Below are positions 15,239-26,722 of a stretch of DNA of 32,000 bases, piece after piece (positions within the stretch are counted from its first letter, which is position 1; each line of letters starts with the position of its first letter). The stretch lies in NCBI GenBank assembly GCA_017475605.1, contig JAFVFD010000004.1:1-32000 (forward strand). The letters are read 5' to 3'. A program made the translations under genes and the position numbers. The notes under the pieces are model-generated. The model searched no databases and was not told where the DNA came from. It saw only the letters and a program-made list of their open reading frames with translations. This DNA comes from Alphaproteobacteria bacterium (GTDB lineage: Bacteria > Pseudomonadota > Alphaproteobacteria > Rs-D84).

Positions 15239-17278
15239 ATGTCTGAAGCAAACGATAACGTTCCAACAATGCCAAAGTTATCTACCAAGATGACGGTGGC
15301 ACAAAAGCGCAGTGGTGAAACGGTACCATTTGATGCAATCAAAATATATAATGCTATTAAAAAGGCTGTGGCCGTTACGGCTGAAATAGATGATGCCAAG
15401 GTTGTCGAAATAACCCAGGCCGCACTTAACAAGATTGATGAAAAATATGCCGGCAAAACCCCAAAGGTTGAAGAAATCCAGGAAGCCGTTATCGAGGCTT
15501 TGATGGATGCCCGCGCATATAAAACGGCTGAATCATATATTATATATCGTCAAAAACGTTCTGAAATTCGTGATTCGTCGGTTGATGCGGTCGAAGTTAT
15601 CGAAGGCTATGTCGGCGGTTCAAATTGGCGAATCAAGGAAAACGCAAACATTGGCTATTCAATTGGCGGTTTGATTTTGCGTACATCCGAGCGCGTAACC
15701 GCGGAATATTGGTTAAACCTTTATCCACGCGCGGTGGCCGAAGCACACAAATCAGCGGCAATTCATATTCACGATTTGGGATGGTTGACCGGTTATTGCG
15801 CAGGTTGGTCTTTGCGCGAATTGTTATACGAAGGATTCAATGGGGTTCCTGGCTATTTACAATGTGAACCTGCGCGTCACATGGCGACCGCTGTATCGCA
15901 CATGGTGAACTTCCTTGGGACACTGCAAAACGAATTCGCCGGGGCCCAGGCATTTTCATCGGTTGACACATACCTGGCACCGTACGTCCGCATTGACAAT
16001 ATGTCCTATGCCGATGTAAAGAATGCTATGCAGACATTGGTGTTTAATTGTGCCGTTCCATGCCGTTGGGGAACCCAAACACCATTTATCAATTTTACAT
16101 TTGATTGGACATGCCCAAAAGATTTGCGTGAACAACATCCATTTGTTGGCAAAAAGCAGGTTGATTTCACATATGGCGATTTACAACCGGAAATGGACAT
16201 GATTAACAAGGCATTTTTGGAAGTCATGACCGAAGGCGATGCTATGGGCCGTCCGTTCACCTTCCCTATTCCGACATATAATATCACGCCGGATTTTCCA
16301 TGGAATCACCCAAATGTAAAACCGTTGTTTGATTTGGCGGCAAAATACGGTATTCCAAATTTCCAGAACTTCTTAAATTCGGACCTTAATCCAACTGATG
16401 TGCGTTCTATGTGCTGCAGATTGCGCCTTGACGTACGCGAATTGTTAAAGCGCGGTGGTGGTCTTTTTGGTTCTGCGGAAAAGACCGGCTCAATCGGTGT
16501 GGTAACAATCAATTTGGCGCGCCTTGGCTATACACACAAGGGCGACCGCGAAGGTTTATTCACCGAATTAAAACGTTTATTAGATTTGGGCCGCGATTCA
16601 TTGGAAATCAAACGTCAGATTATATCTAAAAATATGGAACGCGGGCTGTATCCATTTACAAAACGTTATCTGGGTAATTGGAACCATCACTTTTCAACAA
16701 TCGGTGTAAATGGTGCGAATGAAATGGTACGCAACTTTACAGACGACCGCGAAAACATCGCAACACCGTTGGGTAAAAAGTTAGTTTTAGATGTAATGGA
16801 TTTCATTCGTGAAAACCTTGCTAATTTCCAGGAACAAACCGGCAATCTGTATAATCTGGAGGCCACCCCAGCCGAGGGCTGTTCATATCGCTTTGCGAAG
16901 ACGGACAAGAAAAACTTTCCAGATATCATTACCGCCGGCACACCGGATGCGCCATATTACACAAATTCGACCCAGTTGCCTGTGAACTTCACTGACGATC
17001 CGTTCGTGGCATTGGAACACCAGGAAGAATTACAGCGCAAATATACCGGTGGCACGATGTTACATCTTTATATGGGTGAACCGGTATCATCGGGGGACGC
17101 GGCGCAGAAGATTGTACGAACGATATTTGAAAACTATCGTATTCCGTATATGACATTAACTCCGACATTTTCCATCTGTCCAAAGCATGGATATCTGCCG
17201 GGCCGGCATGAATTTTGTCCGAAATGCGATGCAGAAATTGCCGCAAATCAGAACGAAATTAAAACTGCCAACAACTAA
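15239..17278 (+). CDS. nrdD: Anaerobic ribonucleoside-triphosphate reductase catalytic subunit, 679 aa, lacking the C-terminal glycyl-radical motif
   Basis: N-terminal ATP-cone (VAQKRSGETVPFDAIKIYNAIKKA...YIIYRQKR). Class III core motifs SMCCRLRLD and NLEATPAEG. C-terminal Zn-ribbon-like CPKHGY-x9-CPKC. It ends with two tandem TAA codons. Confidence 0.9.
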   Translation: MSEANDNVPTMPKLSTKMTVAQKRSGETVPFDAIKIYNAIKKAVAVTAEIDDAKVVEITQAALNKIDEKYAGKTPKVEEIQEAVIEALMDARAYKTAESYIIYRQKRSEIRDSSVDAVEVIEGYVGGSNWRIKENANIGYSIGGLILRTSERVTAEYWLNLYPRAVAEAHKSAAIHIHDLGWLTGYCAGWSLRELLYEGFNGVPGYLQCEPARHMATAVSHMVNFLGTLQNEFAGAQAFSSVDTYLAPYVRIDNMSYADVKNAMQTLVFNCAVPCRWGTQTPFINFTFDWTCPKDLREQHPFVGKKQVDFTYGDLQPEMDMINKAFLEVMTEGDAMGRPFTFPIPTYNITPDFPWNHPNVKPLFDLAAKYGIPNFQNFLNSDLNPTDVRSMCCRLRLDVRELLKRGGGLFGSAEKTGSIGVVTINLARLGYTHKGDREGLFTELKRLLDLGRDSLEIKRQIISKNMERGLYPFTKRYLGNWNHHFSTIGVNGANEMVRNFTDDRENIATPLGKKLVLDVMDFIRENLANFQEQTGNLYNLEATPAEGCSYRFAKTDKKNFPDIITAGTPDAPYYTNSTQLPVNFTDDPFVALEHQEELQRKYTGGTMLHLYMGEPVSSGDAAQKIVRTIFENYRIPYMTLTPTFSICPKHGYLPGRHEFCPKCDAEIAANQNEIKTANN

Positions 17279-17314
17279 TAAATAACAAAAACAAAAAAAG
17301 AAAGGGGAGAAAAG

Positions 17315-17503
17315 ATGCAAACAGCAACAAACGCACAACGTACACCATGTGAAGTTTTTTCACGTTCAATGGGCTTTATTCGTCCGGTGTCTAATTTTAA
17401 CATTGGTAAATATTCTGAATTCTGCGAAAGAAAAACATTTACCGAACAAAACAGTTTGTCTGCTGGGGCGCGTCATGCTGATTTAATGAAAAAGGCGGCA
17501 TAA
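17315..17503 (+). CDS. Stand-alone glycyl-radical segment of class III RNR, 62 aa
   Basis: EVFSRSMGFIRPVSNFNIGKYSEFCERK matches the NrdD C-terminal radical motif (R-x-x-G-Y/F ... F/W-N-x-G-K-x-x-E ... R). It has its own SD, AAAGGGGAGA. It is in the same frame as nrdD, 36 nt after the nrdD stop. Confidence 0.7.
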   Translation: MQTATNAQRTPCEVFSRSMGFIRPVSNFNIGKYSEFCERKTFTEQNSLSAGARHADLMKKAA

Positions 17504-17507
17504 TACC

Positions 17508-18209
17508 ATGCGTGATATTCAGATTGGTGGGTTGGTTTCATTTACCACAATTGATTATCCCGGCAAATTGGCGGCTGTGCTGTTTTTGGTTGGGTGTCCG
17601 TTGCGATGTGCGTATTGTTCCAATCCACACTTACTGAATGTTGGACCGGGTGAATATGACCCGGAAAAGATTTATCAGTGGTTGCAAACCCGCGTCGGCA
17701 AACTGGAAGCGGTCGTTTTTTCCGGGGGCGAAGCGTTGATGCAGGGCGACGCAACCATTTCTTTTATGCGACGCGTACGTGAATTGGGTTTTGCAATAGG
17801 CCTGCACACGAATGGTTTTTATCCGAAAATGTTGGAACGCGCCGCAGAATTGGTTGATTGGATAGGCCTAGATTACAAGGCCACGCGTGAAAAATATGAA
17901 TCGTTGGTCGGCAACGCAATCGCATACGACAATATGATTCAATCACTGACATTTTGGCAATCGACCGGCAAAGATTTCGAGGTTCGCATAACATGTGATC
18001 CGCGATTTATTGATAAAAGCGATTTAATTGCGATTGTACGCGATTTAAACGCGCGTGGGGTACAAACAGTCGCGATTCAAAAATATATCGCACATTTCGA
18101 AGACGACGCGCATAAAACAACACCTGAAATGCGGGAACAGTTTTTTAATGACCCCGCCCTGCGCGACCAGATTTCCGCCTTGGTTCCCAACACTATTTGG
18201 CGGGAATAA
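17508..18209 (+). CDS. nrdG: Anaerobic RNR activating protein (radical SAM), 233 aa
   Basis: CX3CX2C cluster CPLRCAYC, GGEALMQ, and a position directly downstream of nrdD. Confidence 0.85.
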   Translation: MRDIQIGGLVSFTTIDYPGKLAAVLFLVGCPLRCAYCSNPHLLNVGPGEYDPEKIYQWLQTRVGKLEAVVFSGGEALMQGDATISFMRRVRELGFAIGLHTNGFYPKMLERAAELVDWIGLDYKATREKYESLVGNAIAYDNMIQSLTFWQSTGKDFEVRITCDPRFIDKSDLIAIVRDLNARGVQTVAIQKYIAHFEDDAHKTTPEMREQFFNDPALRDQISALVPNTIWRE

Positions 18210-18235
18210 AAATCCACCCGAAAGGGTGGTTTTTA
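18208..18235. terminator. Bidirectional terminator between nrdG and the convergent 524-aa gene
   Basis: CCACCC-gaaa-GGGTGG hairpin at 18214..18229, flanked by AAAAAT and TTTTTAT. Confidence 0.7.
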
Positions 18236-18236
18236 T

Positions 18237-19811
18237 TTAATTTGCGGAATGTCTGTGAATATATTTTTTTATTCGCCTATTTCGTTGTTTAAGAAATGCC
18301 ATTTCTTTTCTTGCTAAAACACGCCATTCGCGTACATTACTGGGGTAACCAGCAAATCGTTCATCGTCTTTTGTGTTGCGTCTAAGGAATATTTTAACCG
18401 CATACTTTCCACGTTTTTTCTTGACCAAATCTTGCAGCAAGAAAAAATCTATATATTCTTCAAACGTCCCGAACAGATTGAAAAACCAGGCATCCGCACT
18501 TAAAACATTTGTTAATGGTGTCGGGGTGTTTTTATCTTCGTACCAAATACGAATACATTCCATTGTTAAATCTATTCTGTCCGCCAGAACATATATATTT
18601 CCCCTTGATTGATTAACAGATTTCGGATCTTTTGGGAAAATCAGATTGCCACCGATGGTATAAGATTTATGAATATAAGTGTTTTTTCTTTTTTGATAAT
18701 TTCTGTCCTTCTCTAATTTTGTCAGTATCGGCATAATAAAGCGGTTATTGTGATGCGTATATAGATTGACAATGGTGTCCGCCCCCAACCTTTTAGTATC
18801 GTCGCCATTATAGCAAAGATAGTTTTCCATAAACGGCGATTCCGTTAATTTAAAGGGTTTTCCATTTGGCAAATCTTTATTATTCCACAGTAAAAAATGA
18901 TATCTGCGCAACAGTCTAGATTTCAAATCGGGGTCATTGTCAGAATTGTCCGTATTCCATAAATTGATTTCACAATCGTCTGAAAAATCGTGTTTTACAT
19001 CTATATCTTTTAAACACTTACATTGTTCGAACGCATCGCAATTTTTTTTCAGTTCCGCCATTTTTATACCATTTTGTTTTTGTAAATTATAATAAACATC
19101 TCGTACTGCATTTGGCAATTCATCGCCGTTTTTAGCATATTTAAGCGATGCATTTTGCCCGATTATTTTACAACCATTATAATTTCCCCCAAATATTTCA
19201 TATTTAAGTTTACCAATTGCTACTGTCTTTTTTATTGGTAATGTTATATTAAAATATTTTTCCATTTGTTCTTTGGCAGAACGGCCATTTACATAGATTG
19301 CTTCAAATGGCGATTCTGCCATTATTTGTTTCAGCAAACCATAACTGGCCAACGCACGATTTTTTATCAATTCGTTTTCATTCGCCCATGATTTTTTTGT
19401 TGCCCATGGGTATATATCCAGATGCACCAGAGTATCGTTATAATAGGATGCACCGAATAATTTATTCCCCATGTTTTCCATTTTATTGAACCAGTCATAT
19501 GGGTTGTTTTGGAAATATCCAATCAAAGATTCATAAACACATTCTGCATCAGTCTGACTTAACACATCGGTATCCATACACATCAAAGAACCTCTATCAA
19601 CAAATCGTTTATTGGTCCCCGTTAACAAAACACCACTGTTATTTGTAAATTCCAGTCCTGATGGATTGATGCCAATTGTCGCAAAACGCGCCTTTTCCGC
19701 ATTGCCAAAGAAAACCACAGGCACAGATTTTTCCACAATATCCATATTTTCCGGAATCGGATTTTCAAGATAGTTTATAATATATGCCCTTAATTTATTA
19801 CTAATACCCAT
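18237..19811 (-). CDS. Two-domain protein of unknown function, 524 aa (N-terminal half with Mug/UDG-superfamily-like motifs; C-terminal half unassigned)
   Basis: AGGGGG SD 9 nt before the ATG, and 67 nt downstream of the co-oriented ATPase gene. Residues 32-55, VVFFGNAEKARFATIGINPSGLEF, resemble the Mug motif VVFCGINPGLSS. The gene is strikingly AT-rich (12/60 G+C at 18661..18720 by hand count). Confidence 0.7.
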   Translation of the reverse strand: MGISNKLRAYIINYLENPIPENMDIVEKSVPVVFFGNAEKARFATIGINPSGLEFTNNSGVLLTGTNKRFVDRGSLMCMDTDVLSQTDAECVYESLIGYFQNNPYDWFNKMENMGNKLFGASYYNDTLVHLDIYPWATKKSWANENELIKNRALASYGLLKQIMAESPFEAIYVNGRSAKEQMEKYFNITLPIKKTVAIGKLKYEIFGGNYNGCKIIGQNASLKYAKNGDELPNAVRDVYYNLQKQNGIKMAELKKNCDAFEQCKCLKDIDVKHDFSDDCEINLWNTDNSDNDPDLKSRLLRRYHFLLWNNKDLPNGKPFKLTESPFMENYLCYNGDDTKRLGADTIVNLYTHHNNRFIMPILTKLEKDRNYQKRKNTYIHKSYTIGGNLIFPKDPKSVNQSRGNIYVLADRIDLTMECIRIWYEDKNTPTPLTNVLSADAWFFNLFGTFEEYIDFFLLQDLVKKKRGKYAVKIFLRRNTKDDERFAGYPSNVREWRVLARKEMAFLKQRNRRIKKYIHRHSAN

Positions 19812-19878
19812 TTATTATACCCCCTGATGTCCTGTTTTAAAATTATCATACAAAGTAATGGCATATTATGCTACGACT

Positions 19879-21948
19879 TTATTTAGCAAAGCCGATTTTT
19901 GCGTGGGTTGTTTCCCCCTTGACCGATTGTTCGGCGCGCAACATAGATATCAATTCAGATTTATCTGTGATATCCATAATTTCCGCCTTGGACTTTACAA
20001 CGCTAAAATCACCGGGGGCTAATTTAGTAAGGTCTGTAACATCGGCCACTGTAACAACCACCCCAAAGAAATCGTGAAACGCACGCACAACCATTTCCGG
20101 TGTTAAATAATCGTATTTAACCTTGAACGAGAATCGTCGCAGGGATGCCTTGTCCAAAGTATTCATAAGGTTTGTCGTACAAATAAACGGGTATTGCGCC
20201 GCCTCCATCTGGGTCAGCATTTCATTCACACAGCCTATTTCCCAACTGTGCATCGCATGCGACCGGTCGGTTAAAAAACTGTCCGCTTCATCAAATACCA
20301 ATATCGCCTTTTTCGCATTTGCTTCGGCAAAGGCGCGTGCGATATTTTGTTCTGTTTCACCGACAAACGCGCTTTTTAAATCACTGGCCCGTTTCTTTAA
20401 CAGCGGCATTCCCAGCGTTTCCGCCAAATATGTCGCATATGCCGTTTTACCCGTTCCCGGCGCGCCATACAGGCACAACGAAAATCGACGCATATTTTTA
20501 TCTTTGATTTTGTCCGCCAACACCTTTAAATCGGTATCCGTATTTAACAGCGAAACATCAAACGCAACCCCATTGTCATTTTTAATCGCTGGCGCAACCC
20601 CGGTCATCGCCATTGTTAAATTATCCAACGTATATTCAATAATATTTTCATCACCTAAAACCTTGGCATTTTTAACGGCGGTATCAACCAATGCCATTGG
20701 AACATTGTATTTGCCAATCAATTTTTTTAACCTTTCTGGCGACACCCCAAGATTATATTTATCGAACACGCGTTGCCATGCGTTTTGTTTCGCCGCATCA
20801 CCCGGATCAGACATTTTCAATGCAAATGTAAAACGACGAATATATGCCCGGTCCATTGTCCGAATATTATTCGTAATCCAAATAACAGGCTTTTTATTTT
20901 TTTCCAACTTGTTGTTTATATATAACTTGCTGGGGGTATTAACATTAAACGGATTCAATGAAAATACATCTTCGGCTTCGTCAAACAACACGATACTGTT
21001 GGTATCTTGCTTTAATATTGTTTGAACCTGGGCCAGATTGCTTAACCGCGCATCTTTATCGCTTTTTTCTGCATTGGTGGCATATAAATCTTTGCCGATA
21101 TCCGCACAGACTGCCTTGGCAAATTCGGTTTTTCCACACCCCGGTTCACCATACAGCAATATATTTACCCCGACTGTATCCGATTCAGTTGCGTGGCGCA
21201 GTATTTCCTTGATTTTATCAAAGTCATCGGCAATATATTCAAAGTTATTTTTCGTTAATTCTGTTTTAAGCGGTTCGCCCACAATAAGATTTCGCACATC
21301 GCGTGGTGTATCAAAATGCATCCCCAGCAGTTTTTTAAACATTACCGAAAAATCGTTATCACCAAATTTCTGAACCAATATGCCAGATTCAAACAGCGGA
21401 CTGTTTTGCGCCATGGCGCGCTGGATATTTTCAAGTGGCACCCCGGTCAACACCGCCAGGAAATCTTCACTTTCTTCACTCATAATATCGTTGCGCATGA
21501 TAACAAATTCATTTATAACGCGACGCAGCGGTTGAACCCGATTGATAGCCACAAATGCCTGTAAAATCGGCCGGCAATAGTCCGGCAAATAAAATGCATC
21601 ACACAACACATTAAAGTTTTTATCAAATGTTGGTTGCGTAATATCTACGACAAGTTCTGAACGGTATGCGTCCAGTATTTTGGACAAAGTATCCTGTGTT
21701 TTTTTATTTGGGACCATATCACACACGACAACCCTGCCCTGAAGCAGATTTTCCAAAAACACAGATTTACACTCGGTCGACACATGACCGGGCGCATCTT
21801 CTATCAATTTGCGAAAATCAAACCCGAACAAATCTTCGGAATAACGCGCAACGAATCTAAAGAATGTATCATAGTCATTGGGTTCGGCTTCGCCCGCAAC
21901 CAGGTTCTTTAAATAGTACAACGTTATTTGTCTTTCTTTTATGTTCAT
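19879..21948 (-). CDS. Tandem classical-AAA+ ATPase, 689 aa (about 250-aa unknown N-domain plus two AAA modules)
   Basis: AAA-1 has Walker A GEPGCGKT, Walker B IVLFDEAED, sensor VIWITNN and RRFTF. AAA-2 has Walker A GAPGTGKT, FVGETEQNIARAFAEA, Walker B ILVFDEADSF, FICTTNL and SLRRFSF (classical FtsH/Cdc48-like clade). AAGGA SD precedes the start. Confidence 0.85.
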   Translation of the reverse strand: MNIKERQITLYYLKNLVAGEAEPNDYDTFFRFVARYSEDLFGFDFRKLIEDAPGHVSTECKSVFLENLLQGRVVVCDMVPNKKTQDTLSKILDAYRSELVVDITQPTFDKNFNVLCDAFYLPDYCRPILQAFVAINRVQPLRRVINEFVIMRNDIMSEESEDFLAVLTGVPLENIQRAMAQNSPLFESGILVQKFGDNDFSVMFKKLLGMHFDTPRDVRNLIVGEPLKTELTKNNFEYIADDFDKIKEILRHATESDTVGVNILLYGEPGCGKTEFAKAVCADIGKDLYATNAEKSDKDARLSNLAQVQTILKQDTNSIVLFDEAEDVFSLNPFNVNTPSKLYINNKLEKNKKPVIWITNNIRTMDRAYIRRFTFALKMSDPGDAAKQNAWQRVFDKYNLGVSPERLKKLIGKYNVPMALVDTAVKNAKVLGDENIIEYTLDNLTMAMTGVAPAIKNDNGVAFDVSLLNTDTDLKVLADKIKDKNMRRFSLCLYGAPGTGKTAYATYLAETLGMPLLKKRASDLKSAFVGETEQNIARAFAEANAKKAILVFDEADSFLTDRSHAMHSWEIGCVNEMLTQMEAAQYPFICTTNLMNTLDKASLRRFSFKVKYDYLTPEMVVRAFHDFFGVVVTVADVTDLTKLAPGDFSVVKSKAEIMDITDKSELISMLRAEQSVKGETTHAKIGFAK

Positions 21949-21994
21949 GTGTTGTCCTTTTTTGTTATTTCATTTTTATTATGGTATCTTGTCT

Positions 21995-22009
21995 GGACAA
22001 AAATGGTCC
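21995..22009. promoter_or_regulatory. Candidate operator GGACAAAAATGGTCC (copy 1), between the divergent ATPase-operon and WYL-regulator promoters
   Basis: Exact 15-mer also present at 23375..23389. It contains GGAC/GTCC inverted half-sites and lies 47-61 nt upstream of the ATPase ATG. On the minus strand its TTGTCC overlaps a plausible -35. Confidence 0.5.
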
Positions 22010-22018
22010 TTTTTATAA

Positions 22019-22047
22019 TTGCGATTTCATTATTTTGATGATATAAT
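22019..22047 (+). promoter_or_regulatory. Putative sigma70 promoter of the WYL regulator gene (TTGCGA-17 nt-TATAAT)
   Basis: TTGCGA at 22019..22024 and TATAAT at 22042..22047, 10 nt downstream of the candidate operator. Confidence 0.5.
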
Positions 22048-22076
22048 TGTAAAAAGCACAGAAATCGGGGGTAAAA

Positions 22077-23141
22077 ATGCGTAAAAACTTTGCCAGAACC
22101 CATATCATGATTGACTTAATTACCATGCTTCAAGTTAACCCAATGACCGAGCAGGAAATTAAGCAGTTTTTATACTCGCAATACCGGGCCAGGCACCTTT
22201 TACGTCGTGGCACATACGAAATAAGCGACAAAACCGTCCAACGTTGGCTTTCCGATATAAAAAAGGAATATCCCGGTTGCCTTACCAAAGAAGGCGAAGA
22301 CCCCGAAACCGAAAAACCCAGATACCAATTATACATTGATGATTACCCCGCAGTGATTGAAGAAACCGAATTACAGGCCCTGCACAACGCAATCAAGCGC
22401 ATTTCCAATGACCCAAATGCCCGGGCGACATTGGGACTTTTAGAGGCAAAATTGTGGAACCGCTTTCAAACCGTCATGAAACACAAATCAACAAATGCCG
22501 CCACATACTATCGCGAATTAAATGAATCAGATATGCTTATCAATTCGGAAATGGTTGTGGTCGGCCCCCGCGCCCGATTTGACATTGACCCGAATATAAA
22601 AAAGACCATAGACAAGGCAATCGTAAAATCTGAAAAAGTTATCATTGAATATCATGGCGCAAAACGAACAATTCGACCAATGGGTGTGTTTTACGGCGAC
22701 AACAATGTATATCTGGTTGCGTTTGCGGAAAAAGATGGCAAACCGGTTGACACGACCCCATGGACATACAGATTGTCTGATATTACCGATGCCCGCAACA
22801 CACGCCAAAGATTCCCCAGCGACCCGACATTTTCAATAAAAGATTATACAAATAAAATGTTCGGGGTGTACAACGATCGTAACATATACGATATTGAATG
22901 GCTTATTGACAAGTCCGTTGTGCCCGAGGCTAAACGTTACACATTCCACCCGTCCCAGGGGGATTTTATCGATAACCCAGATGGTTCCGCGACCCTGCGT
23001 ATGCGTTGTGGCGGGCTGGATGCGATTTGTTCCCACCTGTTCCAATGGAACGGCAAAATCACACCCGTTGCCCCCGCCGAATTGGTCGCACGATATCGCG
23101 AACGGTTAAAAAACACATTAGCAACATTACCCGCGAAATAA
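22077..23141 (+). CDS. WYL-domain transcriptional regulator (wHTH-WYL-C-terminal extension; BrxR/CapW-like), 354 aa
   Basis: N-terminal wHTH (MIDLITMLQVNPMTEQEI...DKTVQRWLSDI). WYL-type core (VIIEYHGAKRTIRPMGVFYGDNNVYLVAFAEKDGKP...TYRLSDITDA). GGGGG SD precedes the start. Confidence 0.75.
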   Translation: MRKNFARTHIMIDLITMLQVNPMTEQEIKQFLYSQYRARHLLRRGTYEISDKTVQRWLSDIKKEYPGCLTKEGEDPETEKPRYQLYIDDYPAVIEETELQALHNAIKRISNDPNARATLGLLEAKLWNRFQTVMKHKSTNAATYYRELNESDMLINSEMVVVGPRARFDIDPNIKKTIDKAIVKSEKVIIEYHGAKRTIRPMGVFYGDNNVYLVAFAEKDGKPVDTTPWTYRLSDITDARNTRQRFPSDPTFSIKDYTNKMFGVYNDRNIYDIEWLIDKSVVPEAKRYTFHPSQGDFIDNPDGSATLRMRCGGLDAICSHLFQWNGKITPVAPAELVARYRERLKNTLATLPAK

Positions 23142-23145
23142 ACCG

Positions 23146-23328
23146 CTATCTTGAAAAAAGAAAGCGTCCGCGTTCATCATAAACCGTTGTAATATTACCA
23201 ACCCGAACACTTACGGTTGAATCATTATATCCAACCAGTGTCCCGGAAAGAGTACATTTGAATTCACCGCGTGTACCGTATACAGTTACGATGTTATTGC
23301 CGGTTTGTTTTACAAGTCCTATTGACAT
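23146..23328 (-). CDS. Small beta-rich protein with an internal repeat, 60 aa
   Basis: AAGGA SD at the same spacing as the ATPase gene. The 5' region is paralogous to that of the ATPase operon. Internal repeat: NIVTVYGTRGEF / NITTVYDERGRF. Confidence 0.55.
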   Translation of the reverse strand: MSIGLVKQTGNNIVTVYGTRGEFKCTLSGTLVGYNDSTVSVRVGNITTVYDERGRFLFSR

Positions 23329-23374: not shown

Positions 23375-23389
23375 GGACAAAAATGGTCC
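23375..23389. promoter_or_regulatory. Candidate operator GGACAAAAATGGTCC (copy 2), upstream of the 60-aa ORF
   Basis: Identical 15-mer at the identical distance (47-61 nt) from the start codon as copy 1. It is followed by an extra half-site, AGGACAAAAAA. Confidence 0.5.
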
Positions 23390-23455
23390 AAGGACAAAAA
23401 AGAAAAAACAAAAAATACCCATTCGGGCATTTATACATCTAATTTCTAAAACAAT

Positions 23456-23525: not shown

Positions 23526-25472
23526 ATGAACCAAGACAAACTTTCAACTTTATTATCGTTGTATAAAGAACATTTTTCAACAAACTGGGAAAAAGAAAAT
23601 TATAAATGGGTTGCTGTCAAACAATTCCAAGACAATTGGGACATCGATGCGACAGATTTCTATACCATGCTGGATAACAGTTTAAAGGAAACAGACAATC
23701 TTTTAACCAGCGCAGGTTTTTTCCCAAAACTTATGATTTTGCGTTTTGCTGAAAAATATCCGTCACAGGTACGCAAAATGTTTCGTACTTTATTTGACGA
23801 AACAAAACCACTTGCTGGGCGCATCAAATCTTTCCAGGAATCATCTGATAAATTGATGGATTCATACGGCCAAGCCGGACATCACTACCAAAACGAAAAT
23901 ACAATCAGTATATATTTGTGGCTGCGTTATCCGGAAAAGTACTATATTTACAAATACAAGGTATGCAAAAATGTGATTTCGTTGTTGGATGCGCCGTATA
24001 AAATAAAAAAAGGCGAATCCTTTGACAATTTAACATCTTGTTTCGCCCTGTACAACGATATTCAAGAAGTTATGTTACGCGACAATGATTTAAAGACAAT
24101 CCTGCGTGAACATATCGGCAAAAATCATTACAAGGACACTAAATTGCACACAGCCGTATCGGATTTTTGCTTCTTTATAACAAAACAAACACAAACAACA
24201 GATGACGAACAAAAATCTTCGCACACATCTGGTGGTAAAAACTATTGGTGGTTAAACGCAAATCCAAAGATATGGCAATTTTCAACTGTTGCTGTCGGCC
24301 AAGAAGAAAGTTATACCGTATATAACGAAGGCCACCCCAGACGAATACACCAAAACTTTTTGGACGCAAAACCCGGCGATATTGTTATCGGATATCAGGC
24401 ATCACCAACAAAACAAATAACCGCCATATGCGAAATTACCAGATCTCAAGATGGAAATAATCTGTATTTTAAAAAAACGCAAGATGTTGATACACCTGTT
24501 GACTACAAAACCTTGCAAAATATGCCTGAACTGTCCAATATGCAGTTTTTCCAAAACCCCAACGGCAGTTTATTCAAATTAACACAAGAAGAATACGAAG
24601 CAATCATGCGAAAAATAAATAACACCACATATACCAAACAAGACTTCTTAAACGAAGTGTTTATGACTGAAGAAAAATACGACGATATCGTAGCCTTGCT
24701 TGAAAGAAAAAAGAATATTATTTTACAGGGCGCACCAGGGGTTGGAAAAACCTATGCCGCCAAACGTTTAGCCTATTCCATAATCGGCCAAAAAGATGAA
24801 TCTCGCATAAAAATGGTACAATTCCACCAAAATTATGCGTATGAAGACTTTGTCCTGGGATACAAACCAAACGGAAATGGTTTTGAATTAAAGACAGGTA
24901 TCTTTTATAACTTTTGTACCGTCGCCGCACAAGATCCGGACCAACCGTACTTCTTTATTATTGATGAAATTAACCGCGGTAATTTAAGCAAGATTTTTGG
25001 TGAATTGTTAATGATGATTGAACCAGAATATCGTGGCAAGTCGGTAACTTTGGCATATACCGACGAACCGTTTATCGTCCCACGTAATGTATACATTATT
25101 GGTATGATGAATACCGCCGATCGCAGTTTGGCATTAATTGACTATGCCCTGCGCCGTAGATTCGGTTTTGTGGGTATGGAACCAGGTTTTGATTCGGTTG
25201 GGTTTCAAAAATATTTATCAATGAATCAAAAACTTGCTCCATTAGTGGAAGCGATACAGACAATAAATCAAGACATCGCAAAAGATCCGTCTTTGGGGCC
25301 AGGATTCTGTATCGGACACAGTTATCTTTGTCCGACCATGGGTTCCGACAAAGCTGTAAATATTGAATCTATTATTACATACGATTTAATTCCACTTATC
25401 GAAGAATACTGGTTTGATAATGACAGCAAAAAGAGCCAACATATAAATACTCTAAAAGAACTGCTGAAATGA
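23526..25472 (+). CDS. mcrB: McrB-family GTPase subunit of a type IV restriction system, 648 aa, with extra N-terminal domains
   Basis: The C-terminal half has McrB signatures: GAPGVGKT, VQFHQNYAYEDFVLGY, FFIIDEINRGNLSKIFGELLMMIE, YIIGMMNTADRSLALIDYALRRRF. The middle (about residues 240-360) is PUA/EVE-like: NYWWLNANPKIW...GDIVIGYQASPTKQITAICEI. Confidence 0.9.
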   Translation: MNQDKLSTLLSLYKEHFSTNWEKENYKWVAVKQFQDNWDIDATDFYTMLDNSLKETDNLLTSAGFFPKLMILRFAEKYPSQVRKMFRTLFDETKPLAGRIKSFQESSDKLMDSYGQAGHHYQNENTISIYLWLRYPEKYYIYKYKVCKNVISLLDAPYKIKKGESFDNLTSCFALYNDIQEVMLRDNDLKTILREHIGKNHYKDTKLHTAVSDFCFFITKQTQTTDDEQKSSHTSGGKNYWWLNANPKIWQFSTVAVGQEESYTVYNEGHPRRIHQNFLDAKPGDIVIGYQASPTKQITAICEITRSQDGNNLYFKKTQDVDTPVDYKTLQNMPELSNMQFFQNPNGSLFKLTQEEYEAIMRKINNTTYTKQDFLNEVFMTEEKYDDIVALLERKKNIILQGAPGVGKTYAAKRLAYSIIGQKDESRIKMVQFHQNYAYEDFVLGYKPNGNGFELKTGIFYNFCTVAAQDPDQPYFFIIDEINRGNLSKIFGELLMMIEPEYRGKSVTLAYTDEPFIVPRNVYIIGMMNTADRSLALIDYALRRRFGFVGMEPGFDSVGFQKYLSMNQKLAPLVEAIQTINQDIAKDPSLGPGFCIGHSYLCPTMGSDKAVNIESIITYDLIPLIEEYWFDNDSKKSQHINTLKELLK

Positions 25473-26563
25473 TCAAAGATAAAAGTATTTATATCAAAAA
25501 CATATACTATATGCTGGGCTATGCCTTTCAGGCCATTCAGCATATGGGATATACCCAAATGGCCACAGAACAATTCGACAATATTCATGATTTGTTTGCG
25601 GCCATTTTGGGAAATGGTATGGTACACCAGATAAAACACGGCATATACAAAGAATATATCAATCATAATGATGATTTGCCGACCGTTCATGGAAAAATAA
25701 ATATATACAACACAATCCGAAATAAAATTTTACATCGTCAGGTTATAAATTGTGATTTTGACGAACTCTCTGAAAATAACATTTATAATCAAATTATAAA
25801 AACGGTCATTGATTTATTTATAACGCACAACAATGTAACCCAGAAGCACAAGACCGCATTAAAACAATGCCTTTTGTTTTTAACCAATGTTGATACGGTT
25901 GATTTAAAATCTGTACGCTGGAACGATATAAAGTTTCACAGAAATAATCAGACTTACAGAATTTTAATTAATATATGTTATCTTACATACCGCGGATTAA
26001 TACAAACAACCGAAAACGGACAAGAAAAACTTGCATCTTTTATGGACGAGCAAACTATGTGCCGACTGTACGAAAAGTTTATTTTAGAATATTATAAACA
26101 AGAATTTCGTGGTGTTTTAAAATCAGAATCTTCGCAAATTCCGTGGGGTCTGGACGAAGAAGACGATTCTGGGTTATTGCCTACAATGCAAACAGATATC
26201 ACATTGTCAAAAGAAAGCGCAAACTTAACCGATATTCTGATTGTAGATGCTAAATATTATACTCATATTTTATCTAATAAAAAATATTCCGATAATGACA
26301 GCCAATTAAAGATTCATTCTGGTAACCTTTATCAGATTTTTACATACGTAAAAAACAAGGAATACGAATTGACACATAAAAACATTTCCCATCGTATTTC
26401 TGGAATGTTATTGTATGCCAAAACAGATGAAGCGTTTTTACCCAATAATTCTTATATGATGAGTGGCAATCGCATAACCGTATCCACCCTTGATTTGTAC
26501 CAGCAATTCGATTGCATAAAAGAACAATTAAACACGATAGTAACACAACATTTTAATTTATAA
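25469..26563 (+). CDS. mcrC: McrC nuclease subunit, 364 aa
   Basis: ATGA overlap with mcrB. PD-(D/E)xK-type motif ...MQTDITL...LIVDAKYY in the C-terminal half. Size and position are typical of McrC. Confidence 0.8.
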   Translation: MIKDKSIYIKNIYYMLGYAFQAIQHMGYTQMATEQFDNIHDLFAAILGNGMVHQIKHGIYKEYINHNDDLPTVHGKINIYNTIRNKILHRQVINCDFDELSENNIYNQIIKTVIDLFITHNNVTQKHKTALKQCLLFLTNVDTVDLKSVRWNDIKFHRNNQTYRILINICYLTYRGLIQTTENGQEKLASFMDEQTMCRLYEKFILEYYKQEFRGVLKSESSQIPWGLDEEDDSGLLPTMQTDITLSKESANLTDILIVDAKYYTHILSNKKYSDNDSQLKIHSGNLYQIFTYVKNKEYELTHKNISHRISGMLLYAKTDEAFLPNNSYMMSGNRITVSTLDLYQQFDCIKEQLNTIVTQHFNL

Positions 26564-26632: not shown

Positions 26633-26722
26633 TGGCGGATGGGGAGGGATTCGAACCCCCGGAAGCCTTGCGACTTCAGCGGTTTTCAAGACCGTCGCAT
26701 TCGACCGCTCTGCCACCCATCC
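26633..26722 (-). tRNA. tRNA-Ser, anticodon TGA (UGA), type II, CCA encoded
   Basis: The minus strand reads GGATGGG..GCAGAGCGGTCGAATGC..ACGGT-CTTGAAA-ACCGC, then variable arm GAAGTC-GCAA-GGCTTC, T arm GGGGG-TTCGAAT-CCCTC, acceptor CCCATCC, discriminator G and CCA. Confidence 0.9.

Follow-up and report, generated by a model that had tools for sequence, protein, structure and literature searches.

We analysed a window comprising the first 32,000 nucleotides (nt) of contig JAFVFD010000004.1, from an alphaproteobacterium of the Rs-D84 lineage; all coordinates given below are positions within this whole stretch. The window contains a group of genes encoding a WYL-domain transcription factor, a tandem AAA+ ATPase, a protein of 524 amino acids (aa) and a protein of 60 aa. 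We found that the conserved core of this group in other genomes is the WYL regulator together with the ATPase, and that the gene adjoining the ATPase is variable and usually encodes a nuclease. Our preferred reading of the sequence and of the comparative analysis, to which we give about an even chance, is that the locus is an unnamed, horizontally shuffled conflict module in which a core made up of a DriD-family WYL regulator and a Cdc48-like ATPase is combined with interchangeable DNA-targeting cargo. It would be a candidate new defence family, with its function predicted from sequence. A regulator-controlled defence island module of ATPase plus nuclease is an already known kind of system; the new features are the classical unfoldase core, the DriD-type control and a new family resembling uracil-DNA glycosylase (UDG) that is fused to a DUF6994 domain. 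The genes of the module are as follows.

18237-19811, minus strand: gene for the 524-aa cargo or effector protein, a fusion of UDG-like and DUF6994 domains (open reading frame, ORF)
19879-21948, minus strand: gene for the 689-aa tandem AAA+ ATPase (ORF and Pfam AAA matches)
22077-23141, plus strand: gene for the 354-aa WYL-WCX transcription factor, DriD family (ORF and Pfam matches)
23146-23328, minus strand: 60-aa ORF, a conserved small protein

All four ORFs were found where an earlier note on this DNA had placed them, and annotation of the window confirmed the flanks that it described (nrdDG, McrBC and a tRNA gene). It had also reported that 67 nt separate the 524-aa gene from the end of the ATPase gene and that the former has its own Shine-Dalgarno sequence; this too was borne out, as a Shine-Dalgarno-like GGGGG run lies 8 nt ahead of the ATG, and a terminator scan found no terminator within the gap. 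The description of the module as unnamed and defence-like, in a variable island, likewise stands, as no named system was assigned to it by PADLOC or NCBIfam profile matches; nor was a WYL plus tandem-AAA system described in the literature that we searched.

A conserved core beside a variable slot

When one genome per species was scanned, 481 ATPase relatives were recovered, of which the best 80 loci were analysed (individual loci are cited below by L numbers). Most of the 80 belong to Alphaproteobacteria of the gut and rumen, and some to Melainabacteria, Deferribacterales, Planctomycetes and other groups. In about 50-54 of 82 loci the ATPase gene has a WYL homologue close by, which is either upstream and divergent or immediately downstream. 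For the content of the adjoining slot, we took a census of 105 co-directional, tightly spaced neighbours of ATPase genes by their Pfam matches. It can be seen that the commonest families are all nucleases or DNA enzymes.

DUF2779: 11 of 105 neighbours
Cas4-like: 9 of 105
HNH_3: 8 of 105
PDDEXK_4: 7 of 105
GmrSD: 3 of 105
UDG: 2 of 105
FtsK-gamma: 2 of 105
RecC-like: 2 of 105

Several of these neighbours were matched by PADLOC profiles, among them those for PDC-S26, HEC-06, SspE and mad8.

The exchange of cargo is seen most directly in locus L005, which has an ATPase 80% identical to that of the window and has the nrdDG insertion site in common with it. When the two loci were compared with blastn, identity ran at 75-82% through nrdDG, the ATPase gene, the WYL gene and the small ORF, and similarity was broken only across 18213-19926, where a 206-aa HNH_3 gene replaces the 524-aa gene. 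Because synteny breaks precisely there, we conclude that the 524-aa gene sits in an exchangeable slot. Its far end coincides with a further feature.

18214-18229: hairpin rich in G+C, lying between nrdG and the 3' end of the 524-aa gene, with a terminator score on either strand (terminator scan)

This hairpin marks the 3' limit of both the operon and the variable slot, and synteny with L005 restarts at 18212.

Each half of the 524-aa fusion was also found with the core in other lineages. In L099, a metagenomic contig, the gene order is WYL, a UDG-like gene (40% identity), a 131-aa ORF, a small ORF of about 53 aa and the ATPase gene, whose product is 51% identical to the window ATPase over its full length. 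A DUF6994 gene lies three genes from the ATPase gene in L058 and L066. In L012 a UDG domain of another family is fused to a DUF2779 nuclease, and in L097 the second gene upstream of the UDG-like gene encodes a DUF2779 nuclease and the intervening one an ankyrin-repeat protein. The earlier note had taken the ATPase and the 524-aa protein as the unit, which does not agree with these comparisons: the core is instead the WYL regulator with the ATPase, and the content of the 524-aa slot differs between genomes. It had proposed testing whether homologues of the 524-aa protein co-occur with the ATPase; each half recurs near the core elsewhere, but most homologues stand alone. It had said that the proposal would fall if the homologues did not co-occur, and the stand-alone homologues of either half mean that this is, in part, what was found.

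The WYL regulator and its predicted operator

The 354-aa regulator has WYL and WCX domains in Pfam. Its best phmmer matches in the PDB are the Caulobacter DriD chains 8tp8, 7tzv and 9pfq (E 4e-18, aa 74-337 aligned), no CapW or BrxR chain in the PDB matches it at E<=1, and PADLOC matches it to a generic WYL model only. The regulator had been ascribed to the BrxR/CapW type; judged by sequence, its nearest characterised relative is DriD and not CapW or BrxR. DriD is an activator from Caulobacter crescentus that is itself activated by single-stranded DNA (ssDNA) and controls an SOS-independent DNA-damage response, with a regulon that includes recA, recJ, bapE, dnaG and the small division inhibitor gene didA. 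Six of the nine ssDNA-contact residues of DriD are kept in the regulator (Y168, R178, Y192, K202, R207 and Y240 in DriD numbering). In the numbering of the regulator the conserved contacts are Y192, R197, Y212, R232 and Y265, together with K222, which pairs with DriD K202; at the non-conserved contacts, V224 stands in place of DriD R204 and D315 in place of R288, and R176 falls in an alignment gap.

Two copies of a palindromic 15-mer, each a predicted operator box, were found in the window.

21995-22009: operator box 1, GGACAAAAATGGTCC (GGAC-N7-GTCC), in the divergent WYL/ATPase promoter region
23375-23389: operator box 2, the same 15-mer GGACAAAAATGGTCC, with the start codon of the 60-aa ORF 46 nt away

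Box 1 also lies 46 nt from its start codon, that of the ATPase gene, and is 10 nt upstream of a CATAAT -10 element (21978-21983, minus strand). The two 15-mers are identical, and the exact pattern occurs twice in the window against an expected count of 0.18. The similarity extends beyond the boxes: the promoter and 5' untranslated region of the 60-aa ORF match those of the ATPase gene at 45 of 64 positions and are paralogous to them. In the relatives, the divergent intergenic region between the WYL and ATPase genes has a length of 126-149 nt in 14 of 18 loci, and the box is kept in 14 of 16 aligned intergenic regions as a TGGACC-(A/T-rich)-GTCCA palindrome, 10-11 nt upstream of a TATAAT-like -10 element, which is the -35 position. 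Across 916 kb of locus sequence GGAC-N7-GTCC is matched exactly 27 times, in 18 cases at 59-95 nt upstream of an ATPase start. The earlier suggestion that the WYL protein regulates the ATPase gene is supported by this conserved operator in the promoter region that they share.

The consensus box of DriD is ATACGAC-N7-GTCGTAT (PMC10853764), and the GGAC-N7-GTCC box has the same architecture, that is, GAC-N7-GTC with an AT-rich spacer. The likeness to DriD comprises homology of the 354-aa regulator over the linker, WYL and WCX domains and a palindromic operator of this design in the regulator's own promoter region. The half-site differs, being CGAC in DriD and GGAC in the window, and as the half-site in L099 is AGAC (AGAC-N7-GTCT boxes), what is shared is the GAC-N7-GTC core. 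The targets differ also: recA, recJ and didA for DriD, and here, within a mobile island, the AAA+ ATPase, the variable nucleases and small ORFs.

The 60-aa ORF, which the earlier note had named only in passing, is present as described and is in fact conserved, with a duplicate of the ATPase promoter and operator. It aligns with its syntenic counterpart in L005 at 53% identity and with no gap, a box precedes both by 46-50 nt, and a jackhmmer search with it found a homologue in L005 only. A PADLOC match suggesting a ThsB/TIR-like protein was weak (E 0.006) and was judged to be due to chance, and no other family match was found. From its upstream sequence, the 60-aa ORF is a probable second target of the WYL regulator, and the shared boxes predict that the WYL protein controls a small island regulon made up of the ATPase operon and the 60-aa gene.

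Further boxes were found in other loci ahead of other small ORFs and of a recurrent protein of 131-135 aa. The latter (L007 1505-2010; L099 2093-2615) has the motif ...IRH..T.YD..DVFY...KKLNWNC..., has a DriD-like box upstream in these two distant loci and is without a Pfam match; by its sequence context it looks like another member of the regulon. Unrelated ORFs of 53-56 aa, each with a box ahead of it, occur at L010 3434-3700, L013 8077-8340 and L099 2616-2875, immediately after or immediately before the ATPase gene. With box-preceded small ORFs in all three loci, small box-driven genes seem to be regular in these islands, and the geometry of a box plus 46 nt marks otherwise invisible small ORFs as regulon members. 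In L010 and L013 the box comes directly after the ATPase stop codon, ahead of the next gene, which implies that genes downstream of the ATPase gene can share the regulon.

The kinship with DriD raises the alternative that the locus is a DNA-damage-response or repair module. According to this explanation, an ssDNA-sensing DriD-type activator would induce the AAA+ ATPase after genotoxic stress, and the ATPase, like Cdc48/p97 in eukaryotic cells, would pull off the DNA proteins that have stalled or become cross-linked there, alongside co-induced repair enzymes (the UDG-like glycosylase, nucleases, RecC-like and FtsK-gamma proteins) and DidA-like small checkpoint factors. That the best characterised relative is DriD, with its regulon of repair genes and didA, and that six of its nine ssDNA-contact residues are conserved both fit this alternative, as do the repair-like cargo families (UDG, RecC-like, UvrD-like and FtsK-gamma), a UDG-like homologue that adjoins uvrC and the several boxes ahead of small ORFs. 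However, a swap in situ between close relatives is not normal for repair genes, the cargo includes type IV restriction-like GmrSD/HEC-06, SspE-like and PDC-S26 proteins, the distribution is patchy across phyla with multiple copies per genome and plasmid copies, and low-G+C cargo sits beside McrBC. The ssDNA signal does not separate repair from defence, because CapW, a defence regulator, senses ssDNA too. We regard a repair module as unlikely.

The ATPase and the two-domain cargo protein

The ATPase is divided as follows.

21199-21948: N-domain, aa 1-250
20614-21186: first AAA module (D1), about aa 255-445
19882-20511: second AAA module (D2), about aa 480-689

The two classical AAA modules reported earlier were recovered by Pfam as two AAA stretches (144.6 bits), and the motifs quoted for them are present (GEPGCGKT at 267-274, LFDEAED at 321-327, GAPGTGKT at 495-502, VFDEADS at 551-557 and FVGETE at 528-533). 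The best matches in the PDB are Cdc48/p97 (E 9e-20). An alignment of 53 homologues showed that Walker A, Walker B, the sensor-1 Asn and the double Arg finger (RR) are kept in both modules, and D2 carries an FVG pore loop of the aromatic-hydrophobic-Gly kind that is typical of polypeptide-threading AAA proteins. We conclude from these sequence features that the protein is a tandem classical-clade AAA+ ATPase that is Cdc48-like. It shares with Cdc48, p97 and VAT the two classical modules, the pore loop, sensor-1 and the double Arg fingers; it differs in lacking a proteasome or ubiquitin-like context and in its N-domain, which is a double-psi barrel in Cdc48 and all-alpha with a possible winged helix here. 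The structural model of this N-domain (predicted local distance difference test score, pLDDT, 90) is all-alpha with a winged-helix-like element, but a Foldseek search gave no significant match in the PDB (best E 0.7), and a winged-helix relationship of the MarR/SlyA type was rejected as insignificant (Foldseek probability up to 0.6).

PADLOC profiles gave only partial matches of the ATPase to IetA, TRIP13 and DolB. The Cdc48-like ATPases associated with CoCoNuT systems have an inactive first module, the C-terminal module alone being active, and have partners that differ from those in the window; on both counts they were ruled out as the same system. A phage origin of the family was also rejected, since despite a PHROG match relatives were found in only 1 of 50,697 phage records and 6 contigs of IMG/VR. 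The family is in essence a cellular one, and it has plasmid copies, for example in Leisingera and Azospirillum.

IetA and the window protein are both classical AAA+ ATPases paired with an effector gene, and D2 matches IetA profiles (PADLOC, E 1.6e-37). A further explanation is that the locus acts in the manner of Iet, as a pair of toxin-antitoxin-like or abortive-infection character. The AAA+ unfoldase would then continuously inactivate or hold back a toxic effector that damages DNA, infection would free the effector and the cell would die. IetA being the most similar of the defence profiles to D2, a pore loop in D2 that points to a protein substrate and nuclease cargo that is potentially self-toxic are all in keeping with this. 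However, NCBIfam NF042959 (IteA) scored only 115 bits against its equivalog cut-off of 510 and covered aa 489-687 only, so that one of the two AAA modules was matched; IetA has a single module, whereas the window ATPase has two and a 250-aa N-domain. The partner in Iet is the protease IetS and here is a glycosylase- or nuclease-like protein, with no protease domain of the subtilisin-like IetS type found in the window operon by Pfam scan, and in many loci the ATPase is without cargo. Because the match is confined to D2 and falls far below the cut-off, we conclude that the system is not Iet, as had been stated previously, although the second AAA module is IetA-like, which had been overlooked. 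Restraint of a toxic partner we consider quite improbable.

The 524-aa protein, previously described as a two-domain effector of novel architecture, consists of two domains on the minus strand that could both be assigned.

19062-19811, minus strand: N-terminal domain with a UDG-superfamily fold, aa 1 to about 250
18270-19004, minus strand: C-terminal DUF6994 domain, aa 270-514

The N-terminal domain was modelled alone, as a full-length alignment (A2) had mis-aligned the two domain families. The AlphaFold2 model, made with an alignment of 30 homologues, had a pLDDT of 92.3, and the top 13 Foldseek matches in the PDB were all UDG, TDG, UdgX or SMUG1 structures (probability 0.72-1.0), the best being 4zby (E 1.4e-5, probability 1.0). 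On the strength of this model the N-terminal half is predicted to have the DNA-glycosylase fold of the UDG superfamily. Its motifs are INPS at 48-51, Y105 and H130-L-D132-IYPW; N49-P50, Y105 and D132-x-x-P-W are invariant or nearly so (alignments A1 and A5), and the 30-sequence alignment of the family has 13 invariant residues. We take the INPS motif to recall the GINPG of MUG and TDG. The family is without a Pfam entry, and its profile found no match among PDB sequences. It is plentiful, in the form of proteins of about 250 aa, in a library of 1.84 billion proteins.

UDG-like enzymes are proven anti-phage effectors, namely Brig1 (PMC11078745) and Brig2 (10.1101/2025.10.29.685425). When the Brig1 sequence, taken from the supplement of its paper, was compared with the 524-aa protein, three functional positions agreed in order and spacing.

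Motif A: LNPG 71-74 in Brig1, INPS 48-51 in the 524-aa protein
Base-stacking Tyr: Y121 in Brig1, Y105 in the 524-aa protein
Pocket motif: N145-F-E147-LYPW in Brig1, H130-L-D132-IYPW in the 524-aa protein

By these shared Brig1-type motifs, the 524-aa protein appears to have retained the catalytic positions of a glycosylase. The S. tokodaii family-4 UDG 4ZBY is the best structural match for both sides, which also share a defence-island context; the window domain differs from the Brig proteins in being fused to DUF6994 and encoded in an operon with an AAA+ ATPase.

The C-terminal half matches Pfam PF22507 (DUF6994) with an E of 1.3e-51 and 176 bits against a cut-off of 27. DUF6994 has been described as a degenerate HNH/beta-beta-alpha fold in which the catalytic His is replaced and two Asp are invariant (PMC11701544). 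The family-invariant residues D293, D295, D345, N400, R403, R412, D414 and Y424 are all present in the 524-aa protein, and this half is predicted to be a degenerate HNH-like, nuclease-like domain. The exact 524-aa protein is known from a single cluster of alphaproteobacterial metagenome-assembled genomes (MAGs), PADLOC gave no match for it, and the UDG-like/DUF6994 fusion seems to be unique to one protein cluster. As a Rosetta-stone test, the 27 UDG-like loci and the DUF6994 loci were inspected, and no UDG-like gene adjoined a DUF6994 gene in them. In L001, the locus of the nearest DUF6994 homologue, the 298-aa gene that precedes it was considered as a detached N-domain and rejected, as it has no BLASTP similarity.

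A number of observations weigh against the reading of the locus as a single module. Most homologues of either half of the 524-aa protein are stand-alone proteins of about 250 aa, encoded far from any such ATPase, and a promoter-like site inside the 67-nt gap means that the cargo could have transcription of its own. ATPases with the same N-domain (52-56% identical) carry unrelated cargo, and this lack of co-variation gives no pointer to a physical interaction between ATPase and cargo. In about 15 of 80 loci the ATPase gene has no co-directional partner, and the Melainabacteria copies are without a WYL gene. DriD, the closest characterised relative of the regulator, governs a DNA-damage response and not immunity. 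Nuclease activity is uncertain because DUF6994 lacks the canonical catalytic His. Lastly, comparison of alignment A1 with Brig1 by hhalign gave no significant homology (E 0.25 over 19 columns only), for which reason we describe the N-terminal half as Brig-like in fold and motifs and not as a member of the Brig1 family.

Several of these points would equally suit an arrangement of unlinked neighbours, in which the 524-aa protein is a self-sufficient effector, a Brig-like glycosylase of type IV restriction-like character to which a nuclease-like domain has been added. Its gene would have come to lie at a hotspot of insertion, next to a WYL-ATPase pair that is unrelated to it and differs in function. 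The stand-alone occurrence of both domain families, the absence of co-variation and the promoter-like site all point this way; in addition Brig1 and Brig2 act as single genes, the PDDEXK_4 cargo corresponds to the single-gene candidate PDC-S26 and the nrdDG flank is a recurrent insertion site. Set against this, the cargo is co-directional with the ATPase gene in dozens of loci, at gaps of -14 to about 80 nt and with no terminator, and nucleases are far commoner in the slot than would be expected of random neighbours. Moreover, in L099 a member of the UDG-like family again accompanies WYL and ATPase genes, its gene being the next one after the WYL gene, L058 and L066 have DUF6994 near the ATPase gene, and the boxes after the ATPase stop in L010 and L013 would allow downstream genes to share the regulon. 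We think it improbable that the genes are unlinked.

Proposed working and surroundings of the module

On our preferred reading, a conflict module with interchangeable cargo, ssDNA arising from phage replication or DNA damage would bind the WYL domain. The regulator dimer would then bind GGAC-N7-GTCC at about -35 and, by analogy with DriD, would switch on both the 60-aa gene and the operon of ATPase and cargo; it may also act by derepression. The glycosylase domain may flip out and excise a non-canonical or modified base of the invader DNA, and the DUF6994 domain may bind or cut the damaged DNA, in a manner that would complement the adjoining EVE-McrBC, likewise a reader of modified DNA. The ATPase hexamer would thread a polypeptide through the D2 pore and so remodel or strip a protein, with the outcome that the cargo is activated or recycled or that proteins shielding the target DNA are removed.

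A stronger form of this reading can be put forward, in which the locus belongs to a widespread anti-phage system with a Cdc48-like unfoldase as its engine, a DriD-type ssDNA switch and plug-in glycosylase or nuclease effectors, and in which proteins would be extracted or unfolded to expose invader DNA. We hold this to be possible but more probably wrong than right, and the same caution applies to the clients that it would involve, such as phage DNA-shielding proteins or effector inhibitors. If true, no earlier immune system would have had at its centre an unfoldase of the classical clade that works on nucleoprotein, and a DNA-damage-type WYL activator would be linked directly to immunity. If the module does protect against phage, the core of a defence system would be a protein-threading tandem AAA+ protein and not a DNA motor, STAND or ABC ATPase, and the modular slot would be a natural catalogue of DNA-targeting effectors; DriD-type regulators, so far tied to DNA repair, would extend to mobile immune islands. 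The defined operator can be searched for genome-wide to find further cargo. The 524-aa protein adds a UDG-superfamily family outside Pfam to the emerging glycosylase effectors, and no other such family had been seen joined to the HNH-like DUF6994 domain; the fusion suggests that excision of the base is coupled to cleavage of the strand.

Two further groups of known systems resemble the module. As with CapW and BrxR, a divergent WYL-WCX regulator adjoins a defence-type operon, and ssDNA sensing is known for CapW; those proteins, however, are repressors of CBASS and BREX, and no CBASS or BREX genes were found in the window by Pfam or PADLOC. With McrBC and GmrSD the module has in common the pairing of an NTPase with a nuclease and modified DNA as the likely, predicted target; EVE-McrBC adjoins it and GmrSD is the cargo in some relatives. 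The window ATPase, in contrast, belongs to the classical protein-threading clade and not to the McrB GTPase clade, and recognition would be by predicted base excision here and is by base reading there.

The surroundings of the module are as follows.

15239-18209: nrdD/nrdG, the flank on the side of the 524-aa gene
23526-26563, plus strand: McrB (648 aa, with an EVE domain) and McrC
26633-26722: tRNA-Ser

The G+C content is 0.35-0.375 in the 524-aa gene and McrBC, compared with 0.42-0.44 in the flanks. McrB (23526-25472, plus strand) is a long form of 648 aa, with an N-terminal region of about 230 aa that is without a family, EVE, a modified-base-reader domain, at aa 239-362 and then an AAA_5 GTPase module. 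On the NCBIfam equivalog profiles McrB scored below the cut-off (301 against 637 bits) and McrC above it (357 against 338). A terminator-like hairpin at 23413-23432 (minus strand) lies just upstream of operator box 2 and the promoter of the 60-aa ORF and has no preceding minus-strand gene; it may shield this promoter from transcription leaving the McrB promoter region.

The flank of nrdDG, the anaerobic ribonucleotide reductase operon, is a repeated insertion site for WYL-ATPase modules (L005, L008, L029, L031, L035, L079 and the window), in several gut Alphaproteobacteria and in both orientations. On the Leisingera thetidis plasmid pBMJM1_5 (L088; NZ_CP109792.1 83554-90868) the ATPase gene, which has a split annotation, is accompanied by genes for a WYL protein, an ADP-ribosylglycohydrolase and a PD-(D/E)XK nuclease; Brig1 and one homologue also adjoin an ADP-ribosyl glycohydrolase (PMC11078745). 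At L007 2173-5917, where the ATPase is 59% identical, the divergent WYL gene is followed on the same strand by a 440-448-aa gene without annotation and by a 431-aa HSP70/MreB-like gene, an unusual companion for a defence-type island. Ankyrin-repeat proteins are encoded repeatedly beside ATPase, WYL or UDG-like genes (L031, L032, L034, L035, L036 and L097), and in L032, L034 and L036 one of 192 aa lies between the ATPase and WYL genes. Finally, a Deltaproteobacteria MAG (L078 3080-7545) has two full-length ATPase paralogues (679 and 687 aa) in tandem after the WYL gene, with an 86-aa ORF between them.

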